40,299 nucleotides of DNA from the sequence record PP856269; one strand, written 5' to 3'. The position numbers were made by a program, and so were the translations under genes. Below the pieces are notes generated by a model. The model saw only the letters and a list, made by a program, of their open reading frames with translations. It was not told where the DNA came from and did no database searches. This DNA comes from Escherichia phage UFJF_EcSW4. Below are positions 1 through 40,299 of the stretch, in pieces (position 1 is the stretch's first letter; each line of letters begins with the position of its first letter).

Positions 1-286
1 CAAGAACCTCAAGTCTCCCCATAGGCCCTCTTTCAGTCTCGACCAAAGGCCCTACCCCAGTATATCATAAGGTTGGACCGATGGTCAAGACTTCAGGTCA
101 ACGATAGGTGGTGACTATGGCTTCGGGAAGGACGATAGGTGGTGACTATAGGCCCTCTTTCAGTCTCGACCAAAGGCCCTACCCCAGTATATCATAAGGT
201 TGGACCGATGGTCAAGACTTCAGGTCAACGATAGGTGGTGACTATGGCTTCGGGAAGGACGATAGGTGGTGACTATTGGTCTGTCT
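1..286. repeat. Direct terminal repeat, left copy (286 bp, identical to 40014-40299)
   Basis: First 286 nt (caagaacctcaagtctcc...gactattggtctgtct) recur exactly at the window end; T7-like phages carry direct terminal repeats. The true DTR may extend beyond the window edge. Confidence 0.9.
21..276. repeat. Two tandem 128-bp units (21-148, 149-276) inside the terminal repeat, each holding two copies of an 18-bp motif ACGATAGGTGGTGACTAT
   Basis: Read directly: ataggccctctttcagtctcgaccaaaggccctacccc...ggtggtgacta repeats head to tail with period 128; the 18-mer sits at 101-118, 132-149, 229-246 and 260-277. Confidence 0.9.
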
Positions 287-317
287 TTTGAGTCTCTATC
301 TGTATCAGACCTTGAGT

Positions 318-392
318 CACTACCTACAGTCTAACTACCTACAGTCTAACTACCTACAGTCATCGACCATCGGTAATGCAGCTACCTACAGT
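318..392. repeat. Short tandem repeats CTAACTACCTACAGT (two full copies, one partial, plus a fourth TACCTACAGT at 383-392) just inside the left DTR
   Basis: Read directly at 319-360 and 381-392; a related CCTAC(A/G)GT array lies just inside the right DTR. Confidence 0.85.
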
Positions 393-518
393 CAGAGACA
401 TACAGTTAATAGACACAAAGGCTATAGACTTAAGGTCTAAGACATGTTAGTCAAAGACTATATCCTCTTACACCATGGGGCCGACGATGGCTTAATCAAT
501 ATTATTTCAAATTACATA

Positions 519-548
519 TTGACTACAGGTCCAGACTATGGCTTAATA
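519..548 (+). promoter_or_regulatory. Candidate host sigma70-type early promoter (TTGACT, 18 nt, TTAATA)
   Basis: -35-like TTGACT at 519-524 and a weak -10-like hexamer at 543-548; position matches the T7 early promoter cluster. Weak -10. Confidence 0.3.
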
Positions 549-829
549 GCTTCCGTCAACACGACACGGCAACAACCGGATAGTGAAGACGCCGGTGTCA
601 TCCCGGTTAAGTAGACAGCCTGATAAGTCATAAGAACAACAGGCAGATGACAATAAGGTAGTAAGGTCGCTGAGGGCTTCCACTTCAGCAGGTCGGAAAG
701 GTCCTAAAACCTAACGAGAGTCTGACCAGCTCGCCAAGTCTGCCACTGAGGTGGATAACCAGAGGAGGCAACGTGTCGCCCACTGAGGGGCTACAGCTCA
801 CAGTTTAGGTTAACAGGCTAAACAAATGC

Positions 830-859
830 TTGACAAGATGTAACGATAAGATGTAATAT
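830..859 (+). promoter_or_regulatory. Candidate host sigma70-type early promoter (TTGACA, 17-18 nt, TAATAT)
   Basis: Consensus -35 TTGACA at 830-835 and TGTAATAT at 852-859; resembles the T7 A2/A3 pattern (TTGACA...GTAAGAT) and sits about 180 bp upstream of the first early ORF. Confidence 0.5.
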
Positions 860-1037
860 TTACCACATCGAAACAACGGTGATGACCAACACTGAAATGG
901 TCTACCTGAAGTCCTCTGACTGAAGGGAATGCTCTTTAACAATCTGGATAAACTCTTAATGTGCGCCGATAGCGACTAACTACAGGGCCTTTGAGTCTAC
1001 ATCTGAAGGCCCTGACTGATAGCCACTAACTTAAAGG

Positions 1038-1292
1038 ATGGACACTATGAAACACTTAAGCACAATCACTAATCGCAATGAAGTATTCGTGAACACTAAA
1101 GGTTATGCGTGGATTCAGCTTAAAGAGATGAGAGGAGCGCGTCACCGTGTGGTAGTGCGCAAGGTATCAAGCAAGCAGTTCAGCAACTACAGAGTCGATA
1201 CTATGCGTATAGACAACGAGACTTACCTGATAGACTCGCAGATAACCGTGCGTCCTACAGCGGGCATCTCAGCTCCTTATTTCGCTAACTGA
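1038..1292 (+). CDS. Hypothetical early protein, 84 aa (alternative start at the ATG at 1047)
   Basis: First ORF after the early promoter region, preceded by aaagga; no recognisable similarity. Confidence 0.5.
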   Translation: MDTMKHLSTITNRNEVFVNTKGYAWIQLKEMRGARHRVVVRKVSSKQFSNYRVDTMRIDNETYLIDSQITVRPTAGISAPYFAN

Positions 1293-1375
1293 GAGTGATT
1301 AACTACAGGTCGTTAGACTGATAGCGGCCTGACTGATAGTCACTAACACATAATTAACTTTGAGAGGATATAACT

Positions 1376-1879
1376 ATGGAACGTAATGCTAACGCATACT
1401 ATGAGCTGCTGGCTGCAACCGTTGAGGCATTTATCGAGCGTATTCAGTACGACCACCTGACTCAAGATGATGACTACAGCGATGCGCTGCATGAGGTAGT
1501 AGACGGTCAGGTTCCACACTATTACCACGAGATTTTTACGGTGATGGCTGCTGATGGTATAGACCACGAGTTCGAAGACTCTGGGCTGATGCCTGAAACC
1601 AAGGACGTAACGCGTATACTACAAGCTCGCATCTATGAGGCGCTTTATAACGATGTGTCTAATAGCTTGGATGTAGTCTGGTTTGAGGATGAAGAGGCAG
1701 ACGAAGAGGATGAATATTGGGTAGTTGACGCTAAAACAGGCGCAATAATTGTGCAAGCTGTAGCTCTTGAGGTCGCTACTGCATGTGCCAAGGTCAACTA
1801 TGCAATAGGTCGCCACCTGAAGGTGGAAGACATCAATGATAACGTAGTGTTCGACCCTGCGGCTGAGGACTGCGAGTGA
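1376..1879 (+). CDS. 0.3: Ocr-like DNA-mimic anti-restriction protein (gp0.3 homolog) with a roughly 50-aa C-terminal extension
   Basis: 167-aa acidic protein; the segment [42 protein letters not shown] matches the T7 Ocr core ([42 protein letters not shown], from memory). T7 Ocr is 117 aa. Confidence 0.85.
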
Positions 1880-2028
1880 TGGTAACTTATGGTCTCTGCC
1901 AGCACCACGTCGCCAACGCCCGGCTTATGGTCAAGACCGGGCGGTTAACCCATGATGATACTATGCGTCTCCTGAAGGTGGTCTACAAGCGCCGCAAGCG
2001 CATACACGACAGTTTGCACGCTGAGTGA
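1879..2028 (+). CDS. Possible small basic protein, 49 aa, coupled to the Ocr stop (TGATG overlap)
   Basis: ATG at 1879 overlaps the Ocr TGA; [49 protein letters not shown]; below the ORF-track size cutoff. Confidence 0.3.
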   Translation: MVTYGLCQHHVANARLMVKTGRLTHDDTMRLLKVVYKRRKRIHDSLHAE

Positions 2029-2095
2029 TAAACGAGAGGTCATCGACTGATAGGTGGCCTCAAAGATTACCACTTACATTGATAGGAGAATTACT

Positions 2096-2263
2096 ATGAA
2101 ATTTACAATCATCGCACTTTACGTAACCATTATTCTATCTTGGCTTACTGCGGTGCTCACTGATGGTAACGCATTACGACTGGGCTGGCTGGCAGTGGAC
2201 ATTATATTCTCTCCGGTAGGTGTCGTGCGCGGTATCTTGATATGGATTGGACTGGCAGGATAA
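2096..2263 (+). CDS. Small hydrophobic (membrane) protein, about 55 aa; track ORF extends to a GTG at 2054
   Basis: ATG at 2096 is preceded by aggag at spacing 8; MKFTIIALYVTIILSWLTAVL... is predominantly hydrophobic, consistent with a membrane helix. Confidence 0.5.
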   Translation: MKFTIIALYVTIILSWLTAVLTDGNALRLGWLAVDIIFSPVGVVRGILIWIGLAG

Positions 2264-2266
2264 ACT

Positions 2267-2464
2267 ATGAGTCTTGCACTATTGATAGCAATAGGCTATG
2301 GACTTATCGCCTACGTGCTGGTGAGATACATCAACAAAGCGCGTAAAGTCTACAAATTCAACTATGTACGTCTGGGCCGCTGGACTGTACGTCAACCTAA
2401 CGGACGATTCATGCGCAACTTAGCGAACGTCTGGGATATAGCAACTATTGGGAGCAAACTGTAA
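2267..2464 (+). CDS. Hypothetical small protein, 65 aa, hydrophobic N-terminus
   Basis: ORF packed tightly after the previous gene; N-terminal LALLIAIGYGLIAYVLV stretch. Confidence 0.5.
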   Translation: MSLALLIAIGYGLIAYVLVRYINKARKVYKFNYVRLGRWTVRQPNGRFMRNLANVWDIATIGSKL

Positions 2465-2724
2465 TGAAAACCGTATACATTAACAAACCATCTAGCCATA
2501 GCCGTGTAGAGCAAATAGAGCGTGACATGCTCTTACATCGCCGCATGAGGGCTGAGGGCCATAAGTACGAACTGATGAGTCTGGCGTTTGGTGGACGACC
2601 GATCACTGACGATGGTAAACTTTTAGTCTCAGGCTGGAAGGCGATAGACCAACGGTCAACCATCAAGCACACGACTCACGGTGACTTCAGCCATCTCCAC
2701 GCTAACCCACTGATATGCAAGTGA
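2464..2724 (+). CDS. Hypothetical early protein, 86 aa
   Basis: Start overlaps the upstream stop (TAATG); occupies the position where T7 has genes 0.6/0.7 but is far too short to be the gp0.7 kinase. Confidence 0.5.
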   Translation: MKTVYINKPSSHSRVEQIERDMLLHRRMRAEGHKYELMSLAFGGRPITDDGKLLVSGWKAIDQRSTIKHTTHGDFSHLHANPLICK

Positions 2725-2729
2725 TTATG

Positions 2730-2752
2730 ACTTAACTATCACTATAGGACTC
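2730..2752 (+). promoter_or_regulatory. Phage RNAP promoter (CTTAACTATCACTATAGGAC), immediately upstream of the RNAP gene
   Basis: Matches the 11-copy consensus (T/A)AACTATCACTATAGG; predicted +1 G at 2747. Confidence 0.7.
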
Positions 2753-2821
2753 AAGGTCTAAGACTCCAAGTGAAAGACCAAAGAGACTTTAAGTGAAAGA
2801 CTAATAACAAGGACTTTAAGT

Positions 2822-5503
2822 ATGAGCGTCATCTCTATTGATAAACACGACTTCTCTGATGTGTCTAACGCCATTGAGCCGTTTAACCTGCTGGCTGACC
2901 ACTACGGGCAAGACCTTGCAGTCAAACAGCTTCAGCTTGAGCATGAGGCATACACTGAAGGCGAGCGACGTTTCATCAAAAACCTTGAGCGACAGACTGA
3001 GCGCGGGGAACTGGCAGACAATCAGGTCGCCAAGCCTTTGATGCAGACTCTGGTTCCTAAGATTGCGCAAGCCGTCAAGGAGTGGCACGAAGGTCCAGAC
3101 GGGAAGCTGTCAACCTCACGTCCGAGCGTAGCGTTCACCATGTTAAGCACTGAAGAGAAGGCCGTTAAAGACCGCTCTCTACGCATCTCCTGTGAGTCTG
3201 CTGCGGTCATCATACTGAAGGTCATACTCTCCAAGCTGGTCAAGCCTGAAGGTATACCGATTACACCGATGGCCTCCGCGATAGGTCGCACACTTGAGGA
3301 TGAAATCCGATTCGGTCGCATTCGTGACAAGGAGAAGGAGCACTTCAAGAAGGCGATAGCTGAGAACTTGAACAAGCGAGCTGGGGCATCCTACAAGAAA
3401 GCCTACATGCAAGCGGTCGAGGCATCCATGCTGGAGCAAGGCCAACTGGAAGATGCGTGGGGGAATTGGAGTCCTACAGAGGCTGTCCACGTTGGCATCA
3501 AGATGCTTGAGATTATCATCCAGTCGACGCAACTGGTCGAGCTTAAGCGCTACGGTGCTGGCAATGCAGCGGCTGACGTTGAGATGGTCCACCTGTCAGA
3601 CTTCTGGGTCAAGAAGATGGCACAACGCGGCTTTAGCCTTGCGGGTATCGCCCCAGTCTACCAACCTTGCGTCGTTCCACCTAAGCCGTGGACTGGTGTC
3701 GTAGGCGGTGGGTACTGGGCCAAAGGTCGCAGACCTCTACCACTGATTCGCTTAGGGTCTAAGTCTGCGGTAGCACGTTACGAAGATGTGTATATGCCTG
3801 AAGTATATGACGCTGTTAACATCATCCAGAATACACCTTGGAAAGTAAACAAGAAGGTTCTGGACGTGGTGAACATGGTCGAGAAGTTGAACAACACGCC
3901 TATTGATGATATCCCTCAGATGGAGCCACTGAAGCCTGAAGACTATGCAGGTGAGACTGAAGAGGAACTCAAGGCATGGAAGAAGGCTGCTGCTGGTATC
4001 TACCGCCGAGAGAAGGCCCGGCAGTCACGTAGATTGTCACTGAGCTTTATCGTTAACCAAGCGAACAAGTTCTCTCAGTTCAAGGCCATCTGGTTCCCGT
4101 ACAACATGGACTGGCGCGGTCGCGTCTACGCTGTGCCGATGTTCAACCCTCAGGGTAACGACATGCAAAAGGGTCTCCTGACTCTGGCAGTCGGTAAGCC
4201 TATTGGTGCTGATGGTTTCAAATGGCTGAAGGTCCACGGTGCAAACTGTGCGGGTGTCGATAAAGTCACCTTCGAGGAGCGCATCAAGTGGGTGGAAGAC
4301 AACCACGACAACATCATGGCTGCTGCTAAGGCACCGATGGATAGCATTGAGTGGTGGGGCAAGTTAGACTCTCCTTTCTGCTTCCTTGCGTTCTGCTTCG
4401 AGTATGCTGGCGTGATGCACCACGGATTGTCTTACTCCTGCTCGCTGCCGATAGCATTCGATGGGTCCTGCTCTGGGATTCAGCACTTTAGCGCGATGCT
4501 TCGTGATCACATCGGTGGACATGCAGTAAACCTGACGCCTTCCGGTAAGGTCCAAGACATCTACCGCATCGTGTCTAACCGCATTGAGGAAGAGCTTAAA
4601 GTCCTGCTGGTTAACGGCACGGACAACGAGATGGTAACTCACGAGGACAAGAAAACTGGTGAGATTACCGAGCGTCTCAAGCTGGGGACACGAGAGCTGG
4701 CCCGTCAGTGGCTGACCTACGGTATGTCACGAAAGGTCACTAAGCGTTCGGTCATGACTCTGGCCTACGGGTCGAAAGAGTACGGCTTCGCAGACCAAGT
4801 TTACGAGGACATCGTGATGCCAGCGATTGACTCAGGGTCTGGCGCTATGTTCACTGAACCAAGCCAAGCATCTCGCTTCATGGCTAAGATGATTTGGGAA
4901 GCTGTGAGTGTGACCGTAGTTGCTGCGGTTGACGCGATGAAATGGCTTCAGGGTGCTGCCAAGCTGCTGGCGGCTGAAGTGAAGGACAAGAAGACGGGTG
5001 AAATCCTGAAGCCTTGCCTTCCGGTACATTGGGTCACACCTGATGGGTTCCCGGTCTGGCAGGAATACCGCAAGAAGGATACCACTCGTCTGAACCTGAT
5101 GTTCTTAGGGTCCTTCAACCTTCAACCTACCGTCAACAAAGGTACTAAGAAAGAGCTGGACAAGCACAAGCAGGAGTCAGGCATTAGCCCGAACTTCGTC
5201 CACTCACAAGATGGTAGCCACCTCCGCAAGACTGTAGTCCATACTCACCGCAAGTATGGCGTGATGTCGTTCGCAGTGATTCACGATAGCTTCGGGACCA
5301 TCCCGGCTGACGCTGAGTATCTGTTCCGTGGGGTCCGTGAGACTATGGTCGAGACATACCGCGACAACGATGTGCTGCTTGACTTCTACGAGCAGTTTGA
5401 ATACCAGCTTCACGAGAGCCAGCGCGATAAGTTGCCAGAGCTTCCGAAGAAAGGTAAACTGAATATCGAAGACATCTTGTCTTCAGACTTTGCATTCGCT
5501 TAA
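2822..5503 (+). CDS. 1: Single-subunit DNA-directed RNA polymerase (T7 RNAP family)
   Basis: 893 aa; blocks such as PFCFLAFCFEYAGV, SCSGIQHFSAMLRD, RSVMTLAYGSKE..., HDSFGTIPADA and the C-terminal FAFA match T7/T3 RNAP recalled from memory. Confidence 0.97.
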   Translation: MSVISIDKHDFSDVSNAIEPFNLLADHYGQDLAVKQLQLEHEAYTEGERRFIKNLERQTERGELADNQVAKPLMQTLVPKIAQAVKEWHEGPDGKLSTSRPSVAFTMLSTEEKAVKDRSLRISCESAAVIILKVILSKLVKPEGIPITPMASAIGRTLEDEIRFGRIRDKEKEHFKKAIAENLNKRAGASYKKAYMQAVEASMLEQGQLEDAWGNWSPTEAVHVGIKMLEIIIQSTQLVELKRYGAGNAAADVEMVHLSDFWVKKMAQRGFSLAGIAPVYQPCVVPPKPWTGVVGGGYWAKGRRPLPLIRLGSKSAVARYEDVYMPEVYDAVNIIQNTPWKVNKKVLDVVNMVEKLNNTPIDDIPQMEPLKPEDYAGETEEELKAWKKAAAGIYRREKARQSRRLSLSFIVNQANKFSQFKAIWFPYNMDWRGRVYAVPMFNPQGNDMQKGLLTLAVGKPIGADGFKWLKVHGANCAGVDKVTFEERIKWVEDNHDNIMAAAKAPMDSIEWWGKLDSPFCFLAFCFEYAGVMHHGLSYSCSLPIAFDGSCSGIQHFSAMLRDHIGGHAVNLTPSGKVQDIYRIVSNRIEEELKVLLVNGTDNEMVTHEDKKTGEITERLKLGTRELARQWLTYGMSRKVTKRSVMTLAYGSKEYGFADQVYEDIVMPAIDSGSGAMFTEPSQASRFMAKMIWEAVSVTVVAAVDAMKWLQGAAKLLAAEVKDKKTGEILKPCLPVHWVTPDGFPVWQEYRKKDTTRLNLMFLGSFNLQPTVNKGTKKELDKHKQESGISPNFVHSQDGSHLRKTVVHTHRKYGVMSFAVIHDSFGTIPADAEYLFRGVRETMVETYRDNDVLLDFYEQFEYQLHESQRDKLPELPKKGKLNIEDILSSDFAFA

Positions 5504-5517
5504 CAGGAGAGAGAGCT

Positions 5518-5733
5518 ATGAAATTTGCACACAAGCATACTGGCGTTAATGGTGGGACTCAAATCGTGACCGTAACAGAACACAACGGCAAGGGTCTTGT
5601 GAAGACCACGGTCATCCCTACCGAGATGTCCAAGCAGCTTAACATCCCGTTCAAGACTCTTGTAGATCTGGTCGAGTCCAGCCACGAGAAGTACCTGAAG
5701 GACGCAGTGTCCAAGCTGGAGCAGGCCAAATGA
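5518..5733 (+). CDS. Hypothetical protein, 71 aa, directly downstream of the RNAP gene
   Basis: Strong SD (caggagagagagct ATG); no T7 counterpart recognised at this position. Confidence 0.5.
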   Translation: MKFAHKHTGVNGGTQIVTVTEHNGKGLVKTTVIPTEMSKQLNIPFKTLVDLVESSHEKYLKDAVSKLEQAK

Positions 5734-5807
5734 CAGACCTACAGTTACTGGCCTTGTGGCTAGGAGCACTCGCAGTATTCACTTTAATCCAACGCAGAAG
5801 AGGTTAA

Positions 5808-5830
5808 CCTAAACTATCACTATAGGATTA
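5808..5830 (+). promoter_or_regulatory. Phage RNAP promoter (phi1.1-position)
   Basis: CCTAAACTATCACTATAGGATTA; +1 at 5825. Confidence 0.75.
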
Positions 5831-5870
5831 GACTCAAGGTCATGACTCAACGTCGTGGCCTTCATGATTA
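5828..5870 (+). promoter_or_regulatory. Conserved RNA element, candidate RNase III processing site (R1.1-position)
   Basis: TTAGACTCAAGGTCAT-N-TGGCCTTCATGATTA; AAGGUCA (5836-5842) can pair with UGGCCUU (5856-5862) including one G-U; two further copies at 13355 and 37006. Confidence 0.4.
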
Positions 5871-5900
5871 ACCCTAATAAACTACTGGAGATTTAACCAT

Positions 5901-6080
5901 ATGTATCAGAACACTATCAACTTCGAGCGAATCCGTGAACGTCAGCAGACTGAAGGTTACATTCCGAAGGGCCGCAAGCTGAACAAGACCAAGCGCGGCG
6001 GTGGTGTCAAGGGTGCTTTCCGTAACGCTGAAGGCAAAGACTCTCTGGTCAACCAAGAGAAATACTTCGTAGGAGCATAA
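5901..6080 (+). CDS. 1.1: gp1.1-like small basic protein, 59 aa
   Basis: MYQNTINFERIRERQQTEGYIPKGRKLNKTKRGGG...; the GRKLNKTKR motif matches T7 gp1.1 from memory; below the ORF-track cutoff. The minus-strand track ORF 5874-6083 is its shadow. Confidence 0.6.
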   Translation: MYQNTINFERIRERQQTEGYIPKGRKLNKTKRGGGVKGAFRNAEGKDSLVNQEKYFVGA

Positions 6081-6084
6081 CACT

Positions 6085-6348
6085 ATGGGCCGACTTTATA
6101 GTGGCAACCTCAACGCTTTCAGAGCAGCGTGTAACAGGCTTTATCAGTTAGACTTCGCTGTCATATCTCAGGAGTTTCAAGACTATACGTCACGCCAAGA
6201 GTGTATGAAACTCAGGGTCGAGGACCTAGCTGGTAACATCTTCGCGCTTGAGACCTTCGCACATTACGATGAAGACGTGCTGTATAACACTGCAACAGAC
6301 TACATCAACGGTCTCGCTGACCAACTCGACACATGGAGCAAAGCATAA
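6085..6348 (+). CDS. 1.2: gp1.2-like host dGTPase inhibitor
   Basis: MGRLYSGNLNAFRAACNRLYQLDFAV... matches T7 gp1.2 (MGRLYSGNLAAFKAATNKLFQLDLAV...). Confidence 0.8.
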   Translation: MGRLYSGNLNAFRAACNRLYQLDFAVISQEFQDYTSRQECMKLRVEDLAGNIFALETFAHYDEDVLYNTATDYINGLADQLDTWSKA

Positions 6349-7454
6349 TGACTACGACTATCAAAACCAACCCGCACCGCGCTGTAGATTACTCTGAGTC
6401 TGGCGTTAAGAAAGCACTGGAGGCCGCTGGGTCTCTCGAAGCTGAAGTGAAGTACGATGGCGTCCGGTTGAATCTTCCGGTCTTCCCTACTGGTGAGACT
6501 CAATGGTTGAGCCGTGAGTCTAAACCTCTCCCAGCCCTTAGCTGGTTGAACACTTCCGGTCAGGACATAGGAGCTACCAAAGCGAGCGACTGGCGGTGGT
6601 TCCTGAAGCAAGCTGGCTATGAAGGGACTGGCCTGATGATTGATGGCGAGGTCATGGTGAAAGGGGTTGACTTCAGCACGTCTTCGGGCCTCATTCGCAC
6701 GAAGTATGTCAAGTCTAGAAACTACGACTTCCACGATGGCGATTGGGACCTCAAGTCCAAGACTACTCAGTTCCGGCTGGACCGAGACCATATCAAGGTG
6801 GTCGTCTATGGTATCATAGACCTTAACGTCATCCTTGACCAGAAAGCCGAAGGTCCTATCCATAGCGTCACCCGACTGAAGGCCGAAGCTATCGTCCCTC
6901 TCCTCCAGAAATACCTCCCTGAAATCGACTGGGTTCTGTCTGAGTCACACACGGTCTATGACCTTGAGTCGCTCAACTCCCTGTACGAAGAGAAGCGTCT
7001 GGAAGGACACGAGGGTCTGGTAGTCAAGGACCCGCTGGGTAAATACAAGCGTGGCAAGAAGTCAGGTATGTGGAAAATGAAGCCTGCAGATACCATTGAT
7101 GGTATTGTGGTCGGACTGAATTGGGGGACTGAAGGTCTCGCCAACGAAGGTAAGGTGATTGGGTTCGACGTACTGCTTGAGAACGGTATGGTAGTTGCTG
7201 CTAACAATATCTCTCAGGCTCTGATGGACGAGTTCACCGAAGCGGTTGAAGTTGAACGTGCCTATATTTGGAATGACTGCATGACCGATATTGAGCGGGA
7301 AGAATGTGGTGAGGAATGTCTTGAGGACGTGAACCCATACAAAGGGCATCAATGCGAAGTCTCCTACATGGAGATGACACCAGATGGTTCCTTACGGCAC
7401 CCTAGCTTCAAGTGCTGGCGTGGGACGGAAGATAACCCGACCATTAAGAGCTAA
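6348..7454 (+). CDS. 1.3: ATP-dependent DNA ligase
   Basis: Adenylation motif EVKYDGVR (active-site Lys), MIDGEVMVKGVDF, EGHEGLVVKDP, PDGSLRHPSF match T7 ligase; start taken at the ATG overlapping the gp1.2 stop (TAATG). The track ORF begins 15 nt upstream at 6333. Confidence 0.9.
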   Translation: MTTTIKTNPHRAVDYSESGVKKALEAAGSLEAEVKYDGVRLNLPVFPTGETQWLSRESKPLPALSWLNTSGQDIGATKASDWRWFLKQAGYEGTGLMIDGEVMVKGVDFSTSSGLIRTKYVKSRNYDFHDGDWDLKSKTTQFRLDRDHIKVVVYGIIDLNVILDQKAEGPIHSVTRLKAEAIVPLLQKYLPEIDWVLSESHTVYDLESLNSLYEEKRLEGHEGLVVKDPLGKYKRGKKSGMWKMKPADTIDGIVVGLNWGTEGLANEGKVIGFDVLLENGMVVAANNISQALMDEFTEAVEVERAYIWNDCMTDIEREECGEECLEDVNPYKGHQCEVSYMEMTPDGSLRHPSFKCWRGTEDNPTIKS

Positions 7455-8392: not shown

Positions 8393-8479
8393 ACCAAGTG
8401 AGTGGTGCCGGGAGATGTACGAGAAGACTCTCAACACAGACTACATTACGTTATACAACCAATGGAAGGAGCGTGGTCT

Positions 8480-8650
8480 ATGACTGACGTAGAAAAGAAG
8501 TACATCGTGGAGCTTGAGGGACGCGTTCAGTCCTTCGAGGTTCCGTTGTACGCAAAGTCTCTTGAAGAGGCTACCCTGAAGTCCCAAGAGTATGAGGACG
8601 CTGGTTTTGTGGTCGGACGGATTCGTCCTGAGACTAAACTATCACTGTAG
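8480..8650 (+). CDS. 2: gp2-like inhibitor of host RNA polymerase
   Basis: 56 aa from the internal ATG with SD ggaagga; [14 protein letters not shown]...[10 protein letters not shown] matches T7 gp2 (SFEVPIYAETLDEA...AGFEVTRVRP). The track ORF starts at 8402. Confidence 0.8.
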
Positions 8651-40013: not shown

Positions 40014-40299
40014 CAAGAACCTCAAGTCTCCCCATAGGCCCTCTTTCAGTCTCGACCAAAGGCCCTACCCCAGTATATCATAAGGTTGGACCGATGGTCA
40101 AGACTTCAGGTCAACGATAGGTGGTGACTATGGCTTCGGGAAGGACGATAGGTGGTGACTATAGGCCCTCTTTCAGTCTCGACCAAAGGCCCTACCCCAG
40201 TATATCATAAGGTTGGACCGATGGTCAAGACTTCAGGTCAACGATAGGTGGTGACTATGGCTTCGGGAAGGACGATAGGTGGTGACTATTGGTCTGTCT
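40014..40299. repeat. Direct terminal repeat, right copy (identical to 1-286)
   Basis: Exact identity with the window start, including the internal 128-bp tandem duplication. Confidence 0.9.

Follow-up and report, generated by a model that had tools for sequence, protein, structure and literature searches.

This text concerns the early region, positions 1,038 to 2,724, of Escherichia phage UFJF_EcSW4 (sequence record PP856269). The stretch of DNA that was analysed, here called the window, is 40,299 bases long and is a complete genome of a T7-family phage of the K1F-like type (genus Kayfunavirus). Positions 1038-2724 make up its class I (early) operon, with the genes 0.2, 0.3 (ocr), 0.35, 0.36, 0.37, and 0.38, and this layout has long been annotated in phage K1F. 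What is new is that one product of this operon, the 49-residue protein gp0.35, is the likely cause of the filamentation phenotype seen in K1F infection. The explanation that best covers the region as a whole, and which we consider quite probable, is a K1F-type early operon that encodes an FtsZ-binding protein of the T7 Gp0.4 type and contains no gp0.7 kinase.

The candidate is encoded by the second of two overlapping genes:

1879..2028, + strand: gene 0.35, 49 amino acids; its ATG overlaps the ocr TGA; PF26807 Phage_T7_GP04 family by sequence
1376..1879, + strand: gene 0.3, Ocr DNA mimic, 167 amino acids; PF08684 match of 4e-30 over residues 8-94; 50% identity to T7 Ocr

By several sequence comparisons, gp0.35 is a diverged member of the T7 Gp0.4 family (PF26807). 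A blastp alignment of the two proteins gives 34% identity over 41 residues. The window protein matches three PHROG families, phrog_5058 (1.6e-24), phrog_25044, and phrog_7202, and T7 Gp0.4 also matches these three, with the ranking reversed (4.6e-33, 9e-7, and 9e-5). In a collection of 5.8 billion proteins, PF26807 is assigned to 52 of 52 homologues of the window protein and to 43 of 43 homologues of T7 Gp0.4. Contig annotations name this family PF26807 Phage_T7_GP04; for instance, the 49-residue gene product of contig L027, which is 98% identical to that of the window, carries the label PF26807:Phage_T7_GP04. These assignments are precomputed annotations. The Pfam set used on the window itself was without the PF26807 model, and for this reason the scan of the window returned no Pfam match for 0.35. 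When alignments of the two families were built independently and compared with hhalign, they matched with E = 5e-5 and 2e-6 in one register.

The first-pass annotation of this DNA, made from the letters alone, had seen no recognisable similarity in any of the small open reading frames (ORFs) of the region. This stands for 0.2, 0.36, and 0.38, but not for 0.35, with its place in the T7 Gp0.4 family, or for 0.37, a homologue of T3 gp0.6. Homology to the T7 0.4-0.6 proteins, which that annotation had named as evidence against its own view, is thus found in 0.35.

The placement of the gene and the predicted fold of its product are those of Gp0.4 as well. The ATG of 0.35 at 1879 overlaps the TGA of ocr, as T7 0.4 overlaps 0.3 at 1278. 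Gene 0.35 directly follows the first anti-restriction gene, and RNase III-type hairpins flank the 0.3-0.35 pair. T7 Gp0.4 is a two-helix hairpin of about 50 residues whose gene comes right after the anti-restriction gene, and gp0.35, as modelled, is alike in all of these respects. An AlphaFold2 model of gp0.35, computed from a merged alignment, has a mean predicted local distance difference test (pLDDT) score of 90.4 and contains helices at residues 8-20 and 25-47. This agrees with the published description of Gp0.4 as a pair of antiparallel helices (PMC13423816). When the model is compared with viral predicted structures, the best matches after its own family are marginal ones to small proteins of other T7-group phages. 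The two proteins also differ. Relative to T7 Gp0.4, gp0.35 has a one-residue insertion in the loop and a His in place of W28, and it is basic, with an isoelectric point (pI) of 10.3, whereas T7 Gp0.4 is acidic (pI 4.7).

T7 Gp0.4 is an FtsZ inhibitor, as Kiro and colleagues reportedly found in 2013. According to a recent study, it consists of a pair of antiparallel helices and attaches to FtsZ at the synergy-loop face, the dissociation constant being 382 nM (PMC13423816, 2026). In that work, the substitutions V15A, V22A, W28A/L, M32A, L35A/P, and Y39A each abolish the toxicity of Gp0.4, and both W28L and W28A abolish FtsZ binding of the T7 protein (PMC13423816). Another set, A12K, T14S, L16A, S19A, R23A, and K36A, leaves FtsZ inhibition intact while activation of the CapRel-Ebc defence sensor is lost (PMC13423816). 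The only homologues considered in the 2026 study were 88% identical ones (PMC13423816).

The positions of these mutants were mapped onto 21 K1F-type and 17 T7-type sequences. Residues V15, V22, M32, L35, and Y39 of Gp0.4 correspond to V11, V18, M29, L32, and Y36 of gp0.35; they are identical in the two proteins and near-invariant in both families. Five of the six FtsZ-essential residues are therefore identical, compared with 15 of 46 aligned positions overall (hypergeometric P = 0.010). On the face to which CapRel-Ebc responds, only K36 is identical in the K1F type, and the other five positions are occupied by Q, H, T/A, R, and K. The mapping thus indicates that gp0.35 has largely kept the FtsZ face and that its outer face has been replaced. 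Residues Q8, H10, and R15 on this non-FtsZ face are invariant within the K1F-type family. The outer face therefore appears to be constrained and not to drift freely, which hints at a second interaction, and it might bind a second partner.

Infection by K1F leads to mislocalisation of FtsZ and to filaments with multiple rings (Dhanoa et al. 2022, PMC9372555). The same authors state that K1F 'lacks the 0.4 genes', and their BLAST searches gave no similarity to kil or gp0.4 (PMC9372555). They took the K1F inhibitor to be novel and reported the gene responsible as unknown (PMC9372555). K1F gp0.35 and its counterpart in the window have 90% identity, with every key residue kept. Because of the homology to Gp0.4, the FtsZ phenotype of K1F, and the retention of the key residues, gp0.35 is the obvious candidate for the K1F FtsZ inhibitor. 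On these sequence grounds we think that this assignment is likely to be right; its main caveat is the change from W to H. In the proposed mechanism, the conserved hydrophobic face of gp0.35 (V11, V18, M29, L32, and Y36) would dock onto FtsZ at its synergy-loop surface, so that the Z-ring no longer assembles. This block would then yield the filamentous, multi-ring cells of K1F infection. A phenotype that was published without a known cause is in this way given one candidate inhibitor of 49 amino acids.

Another suggestion goes further and is tentative. It is possible that gp0.35 kept the FtsZ face and replaced the opposite, solvent-exposed one, by which the toxin-antitoxin sensor CapRel-Ebc detects T7 Gp0.4 in complex with FtsZ, and that immune pressure on this 'trigger' protein drove the two families beyond the reach of BLAST. 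If this is true, K1F-like phages can inhibit cell division while remaining invisible to sensors of the CapRel-Ebc class. Gp0.4 and gp0.35 would then form a natural experiment on how phages escape defences that sense complexes of phage and host proteins.

Several observations weigh against the explanation given here. The pairwise identity of gp0.35 and Gp0.4 is only about 33%, the hhalign probability is 67-89% with shallow alignments, and the matches of the model to structures from other T7-group phages reach only E 0.01-0.1. The two-helix hairpin predicted by the model is a common fold. All 21 K1F-type sequences have His in place of W28, a residue essential to T7 Gp0.4, and the net charge of gp0.35 is opposite to that of Gp0.4. 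In the rest of the operon, the hairpins and the promoter at 830-859 (listed below) are energy or pattern matches only. The products of 0.2, 0.36, and 0.38 have no match below E = 0.1 in PADLOC, NCBIfam, or Pfam, searches of PDB sequences with those of 0.2 and 0.38 gave no relative, and the model of 0.38 is unusable (mean pLDDT 46, from a 30-sequence alignment).

Some of these observations would also suit an account in which gp0.35 is a relative of Gp0.4 that has been retargeted, while K1F filamentation is caused by another gene, such as 0.36, 0.37, or 0.38. Retargeting would be in keeping with the loss of W28 throughout the K1F-type family and with the inverted charge, and the strong conservation of a different, non-FtsZ face (Q8, H10, and R15) suggests a constrained second interface. 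However, it leaves unexplained why five of six essential contact residues are identical (P = 0.01) and why fold and placement are the same as in Gp0.4. The FtsZ phenotype does occur in K1F, and scans of profile and structure libraries find no other gene of the region that resembles a known division inhibitor. Retargeting is on balance unlikely, and inhibition of FtsZ by gp0.35 is the preferred reading.

The first-pass annotation placed five small ORFs in the region, and all five are present where it put them, on the + strand. Besides 0.35, they are the following:

1047..1292, + strand: likely extent of gene 0.2, 81 amino acids (ORF open 1038-1292, 84 amino acids); phrog_10124; basic soluble protein
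2096..2263, + strand: gene 0.36, 55 amino acids; phrog_7319; two hydrophobic segments, accessory gene
2267..2464, + strand: gene 0.37, 65 amino acids; phrog_2385; predicted N-terminal membrane anchor and basic tail
2464..2724, + strand: gene 0.38, 86 amino acids; phrog_7066; basic soluble protein, K1F-like phages only

Each of the five small ORFs is preceded by a Shine-Dalgarno sequence and matches a PHROG family (1e-23 to 1e-40). Stop and start codons overlap between ocr and 0.35 (TGATG) and between 0.37 and 0.38 (TAATG). The ratio of nonsynonymous to synonymous substitution rates (dN/dS) was computed against orthologues from 22 related loci, in the annotated frame and in both shifted frames. 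In the annotated frame it is 0.55 for 0.2, 0.37 for 0.35, 0.12 for 0.36, 0.32 for 0.37, and 0.28 for 0.38. The shifted frames give values of at least 0.7 for 0.35-0.38. Genes 0.35-0.38 are therefore genuine, and purifying selection acts on them. In the case of 0.2, a value of 0.48 is obtained in one shifted frame, so that dN/dS leaves the frame of this gene ambiguous.

Short ORFs such as these, of 49-86 amino acids, could in principle be chance open frames in a leader, and the dN/dS values of 0.2 (0.55 against 0.48) would allow this for at least one of them. For some or all of the five not to be genes is nevertheless very improbable. The ORFs are packed tightly on one strand, with Shine-Dalgarno sequences and overlapping stop/start pairs, and they are conserved in 50-223 phage genomes. 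The dN/dS values of 0.12-0.37 for 0.35-0.38 contrast with those of the shifted frames, and two of the ORFs have homologues in T7 or T3.

The first-pass annotation had described an ORF of 84 amino acids ahead of Ocr. The frame is indeed open over 1038-1292, but the start of gene 0.2 is more probably the second ATG, at 1047, than the one at 1038, which gives a protein of 81 amino acids. This choice is based on a well-spaced AAGGA and on the use of the same start in K1F, in the PHROG profile, and in the gene call of a near-identical contig. The same annotation was right that two of the small ORFs contain hydrophobic segments: there are two in 0.36 and one, N-terminal, in 0.37.

The gene content of the region is shared with many phages. 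In a nucleotide search, bases 900-2900 have matches in 228 phage records, mostly Kayfunavirus phages of Escherichia, Salmonella, Enterobacter, and Citrobacter. The closest records are those of the Escherichia phages PhiNW-B1 and LNA3 (99% identity), and K1F matches over the full length with 92.7% DNA identity. In two GenBank records of K1F (AM084414 and DQ111067), the genes 0.2, 0.3 (ocr), 0.35, 0.36, 0.37, 0.38, and 1 are annotated on exactly the same ORFs. Gene order and gene lengths are the same as in the window, and the proteins are 82-97% identical. K1F has no annotated 0.7 gene either, and its differences from the window are allelic only. The annotated K1F layout thus means that the arrangement is no peculiarity of the window. 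By itself the arrangement of the early genes is ordinary, and its value lies in the link between gp0.35 and the K1F phenotype.

The signals that surround these genes, and the gene that bounds them on the right, are the following:

830..859, + strand: putative host sigma-70-type early promoter; TTGACA, 18-nucleotide spacer, TAATAT; 10 of 12 consensus matches
966..1034, + strand: putative RNase III-type hairpin before 0.2; -20.5 kcal/mol, z = -3.9
1293..1352, + strand: putative RNase III-type hairpin upstream of ocr, counterpart of T7 R0.3; -23.3 kcal/mol, z = -5.2
2026..2080, + strand: putative RNase III-type hairpin before 0.36, in the position of T7 R0.5; -15.1 kcal/mol, z = -2.75
2730..2752, + strand: phage RNA polymerase promoter CTTAACTATCACTATAGGACT; consensus match, between 0.38 and gene 1
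2822..5503, + strand: gene 1, phage RNA polymerase, 893 amino acids; 63% identity to T7 gp1; right-hand boundary

In a consensus scan, 830-859 is the best sigma-70-type site on the + strand within 1-3000. From its position, and by analogy with the A promoters of T7, it putatively drives the string of genes. The hairpins at 966-1034 and 1293-1352 have conserved flanks in common (TAACTACAGG...CCTGACTGATAGCCACTAAC), and the hairpin at 2026-2080 is related to both. An Rfam scan of 1-6500 gave no match. In T7, R0.3 and R0.5 bracket 0.3-0.4, and the putative hairpins of the window likewise bracket 0.3-0.35. Host RNA polymerase would start at the 830-859 promoter, and the transcript would probably be cut at the three related hairpins into one mRNA with 0.2, one with 0.3-0.35, and one with 0.36-0.37-0.38. 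The T7 counterparts of the last two are the 0.3-0.4 and 0.5-0.6-0.7 mRNAs. The small early products would serve as host-takeover proteins, and Ocr would block restriction and BREX.

The consensus of the phage promoter at 2730-2752 recurs at 5819, 7548, 18426, 21247, 22243, 27026, 34302, and 39421. Since this promoter separates 0.38 from gene 1, genes 0.2-0.38 are the part transcribed by host RNA polymerase only. The first-pass view of the region as an early block is borne out in this respect, as a phage promoter comes only after 0.38. The records of T7 and T3 have the host promoter C and the RNase III site R1 upstream of gene 1, where the window has a phage promoter. A phage promoter directly before the phage's own polymerase gene would permit self-amplifying transcription of gene 1.

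Ocr itself varies in length. Beyond residue 94, the window protein continues with an acidic run and then an extension of about 55 amino acids with a hydrophobic stretch at 122-140. In relatives, Ocr occurs in a long form of 167-176 amino acids or a short form of 110-114.

Gene 0.37, by sequence, is a full-length homologue of T3 gp0.6 and phiYeO3-12 gp0.6A. Its product is 40% identical to T3 gp0.6 over 63 of 65 amino acids (blastp) and is also similar to phiYeO3-12 gp0.6A. The matches to phrog_2385 are equally strong for the window protein (1.6e-29) and for T3 gp0.6 (9.1e-30). These proteins are all 65-67 amino acids long and have the tail motif TVR-x-(R/P)-NGRF in common. In both the window protein and T3 gp0.6 an N-terminal hydrophobic helix is followed by a basic tail. 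The maximum of the Kyte-Doolittle index over 19 residues is 2.32 in the window (residues 1-19) and 1.95 in T3, and the pI is 11.1 and 10.5, respectively. From the positive-inside rule, the N-terminal helix of gp0.37 would anchor it in the inner membrane, N-out and C-in, with the basic tail in the cytoplasm. The gene occurs in 214 records, and its orthologue in contig L027 has no Pfam match. In T3, the gp0.6 gene is followed by 0.65 and the kinase gene, and in the window 0.37 is followed by 0.38.

T7 gp0.6 is an inhibitor of MreB. Between 0.37 and this protein (PF26851, phrog_8393) there is no blastp match and no shared PHROG, and the hhalign probability is 0.4%. For T3 gp0.6, no function was found in the annotations and literature searched. 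The distinction matters for nomenclature. A 65-residue gene is labelled '0.6' in the K1F record of Scholl and Merril, and '0.6' in K1F records denotes the T3-type protein and not the MreB inhibitor of T7.

Gene 0.38 would be translationally coupled to 0.37 and is limited to K1F-like phages. It is found in 223 phage records, about the number that match the DNA of the region. Its 131 homologues are all at least 68% identical, and none of the 131 has a Pfam domain. A profile search among 1.84 billion proteins returned 14 representatives, all of them phage-like small proteins except one, a repetitive match of 1594 amino acids that was judged uninformative. The C-terminal half is almost invariant. 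In many relatives the protein has 108-141 amino acids, and the start is always coupled to the stop of 0.37. Some orthologues (in loci L008, L010, L012, and others) have N-terminal extensions of 22-55 amino acids, one of them with the conserved insert 'FTDKNGVEWKYVG.DSRG.NYWEKTG'. In one relative, a gene for an HNH-type endonuclease of 140 amino acids lies between 0.37 and 0.38 (L017:3510-3932). Comparison of 0.38 by hhalign with T3 0.65, the C-terminal domains of T7 and T3 gp0.7, and T7 0.6A gave probabilities of at most 0.5%.

Genes 0.2 and 0.36 are accessory, being present in some relatives and absent from others. The hydrophobic segments of gp0.36 lie at about residues 3-21 and 36-54, and its grand average of hydropathy (GRAVY) is 1.47. 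Of 23 K1F-like early regions (those of 22 related loci and that of the window), 7 have the gene, and it occurs in 50 phage records. Between 0.35 and 0.37, relatives have a hypervariable slot that can hold 0.36, a gene of 41 amino acids, a helix-turn-helix (HTH) protein of 115, or a gene of 66. The resemblance of gp0.36 to T7 gp0.5 (phrog_16572) is limited to being small, having two hydrophobic segments, and following an R0.5-like hairpin; the hhalign probability is 0.2%, and the PHROGs differ. Gene 0.2 occurs in 118 phage records and crosses phage lineages; judged by these sequence matches, it is shared horizontally. In Przondovirus it opens the early region and coexists with a kinase, in Gamaleyavirus (N4-like) it lies in the left-end early region, and it is also present in the 150-kb Phapecoctavirus phiWec188. 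Comparison by hhalign with phiYeO3-12 0.45, T7 0.6A, T3 0.65, and 0.38 gave probabilities of at most 0.5%.

The first-pass annotation was right that the early region lacks a gp0.7 kinase, and there is none anywhere else in the window either. The kinase / shut-off family is that of PF27024 and phrog_15752/2828. A tblastn search with T7 gp0.7 against the whole window returned noise only (E of at least 3.7), and a hidden Markov model (HMM) of five gp0.7 homologues gave a best E of 4.5 over 653 six-frame segments of the window. By hhalign, 0.37 and 0.38 match the C-terminal domain of gp0.7 with probabilities of at most 0.3%. A homologue of gp2 is kept at 8477-8629, so shut-off of host RNA polymerase is possible without gp0.7. 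The Ser/Thr/Tyr content of the early proteins is 0.145 in the window and 0.126 in T7, which is the direction expected without a kinase but too weak to use.

The idea that small ORFs stand here instead of the kinase, however, had to be given up. Genes 0.35, 0.36, and 0.37 fill the T7/T3 slots 0.4, 0.5, and 0.6, so that only 0.38 is in the 0.7 position, and 0.38 and the T7 0.7 gene have only this position in common, with no similarity of sequence or profile. Moreover, Shigella phage SFPH2 has 0.37 and 0.38 together with a gp0.7-type kinase. There (L018, 1735-4261), a SAM hydrolase and a gp0.7 homologue of 244 amino acids, comprising the kinase domain only, are directly followed by 0.37-0.38. In Salmonella phage ST15, all that is left of an SFPH2-type kinase is its final 38 amino acids, a remnant that by sequence looks like a deletion scar. 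The presence of the kinase thus varies among phages that share 0.37 and 0.38. In SFPH2 there is no detectable 0.35, and the kinase gene precedes that of the gp0.6 homologue, whereas the order in T3 is the reverse.

A weaker form of the idea is that the small genes replace the function of the kinase, with at least one of 0.2, 0.36, and 0.38 being dedicated to anti-defence and so making up for the missing gp0.7 activity. The kinase of T7 acts broadly against host defences (PMC13645617), and a lineage without it plausibly needs alternatives. Gene 0.2 is spread over early and accessory regions of Autographiviridae, Schitoviridae, and Phapecoctavirus in a pattern typical of accessory genes, the slot between 0.35 and 0.37 is hypervariable, and 0.38 sits at the 0.7 position in 223 phage records. 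Any of 0.2, 0.36, and 0.38 could be a host-takeover or anti-defence factor. Compensation in particular is rather doubtful, as no match to these proteins is found in PADLOC, NCBIfam, or Pfam, or, for 0.2 and 0.38, among the sequences of solved structures. In addition, 0.37 and 0.38 occur alongside a kinase in SFPH2, and 0.2 does so in Przondovirus, which means that small genes and kinase are not mutually exclusive.

Two other candidates for a kinase were set aside. A protein of 174 amino acids (phrog_11084) fills the ocr slot in five related loci (L007, L013, L014, L016, and L017; for example L013:1138-1662), where its stop overlaps the start of 0.35. It was considered as a mini-kinase for its GKGAF and VDCF motifs, but it has no match to the gp0.7 HMM, Pfam, or an annotated PHROG. 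The anti-defence kinase JSS1_004 was considered as the product of a K1F-like phage, but the GenBank entry 'Escherichia phage JSS1' is a Kayfunavirus without a kinase. The kinase of the published Salmonella phage JSS1 has gp0.7-type kinase and shut-off domains, with 54% similarity to gp0.7. Because this kinase is of the full gp0.7 type and the Escherichia JSS1 record has none, the two JSS1 names are taken to denote different phages. The record of phage ZH4 has the annotation 'protein kinase' on a feature at the site of its 0.35 match.

Three public records (PV615262, OR786095, and MT350293) stand out by the host in their names. Those labelled 'Acinetobacter phage vB_Aba_01KA' and 'Staphylococcus phage MBBL139' contain K1F-like early genes with 71-96% protein identity, and that labelled 'Enterococcus phage EFA-2' carries a gp0.7-type kinase. 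Their host labels look doubtful and may reflect contamination or mislabelling.

Outside the operon, the window has a terminal redundancy in which 1-286 recurs at 40014-40299. Inside it lies an exact tandem duplication of 127 bp (window 21-276; 2.0 copies, 100% identity), which may be real or may be an assembly artefact of the terminal repeat; in K1F the reported length of the terminal repeat is 179 bp. At 319-361 there are 2.9 copies of a 15-bp unit, ACTACCTACAGTCTA. Upstream of the main early promoter, 444-614 encodes a homologue of K1F gene 0.1 (phrog_30192). Because it has 56 amino acids, compared with 71 in K1F, it may be truncated or unexpressed. Finally, a hydrophobic ORF of 25 amino acids, MTDLQLLALWLGALAVFTLIQRRRG, lies at 5730-5807 and begins where gene 1.05 stops. 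Nearly all related loci have it, with 80-100% conservation, and no PHROG matches it; it may encode a micro-protein that annotation has missed.

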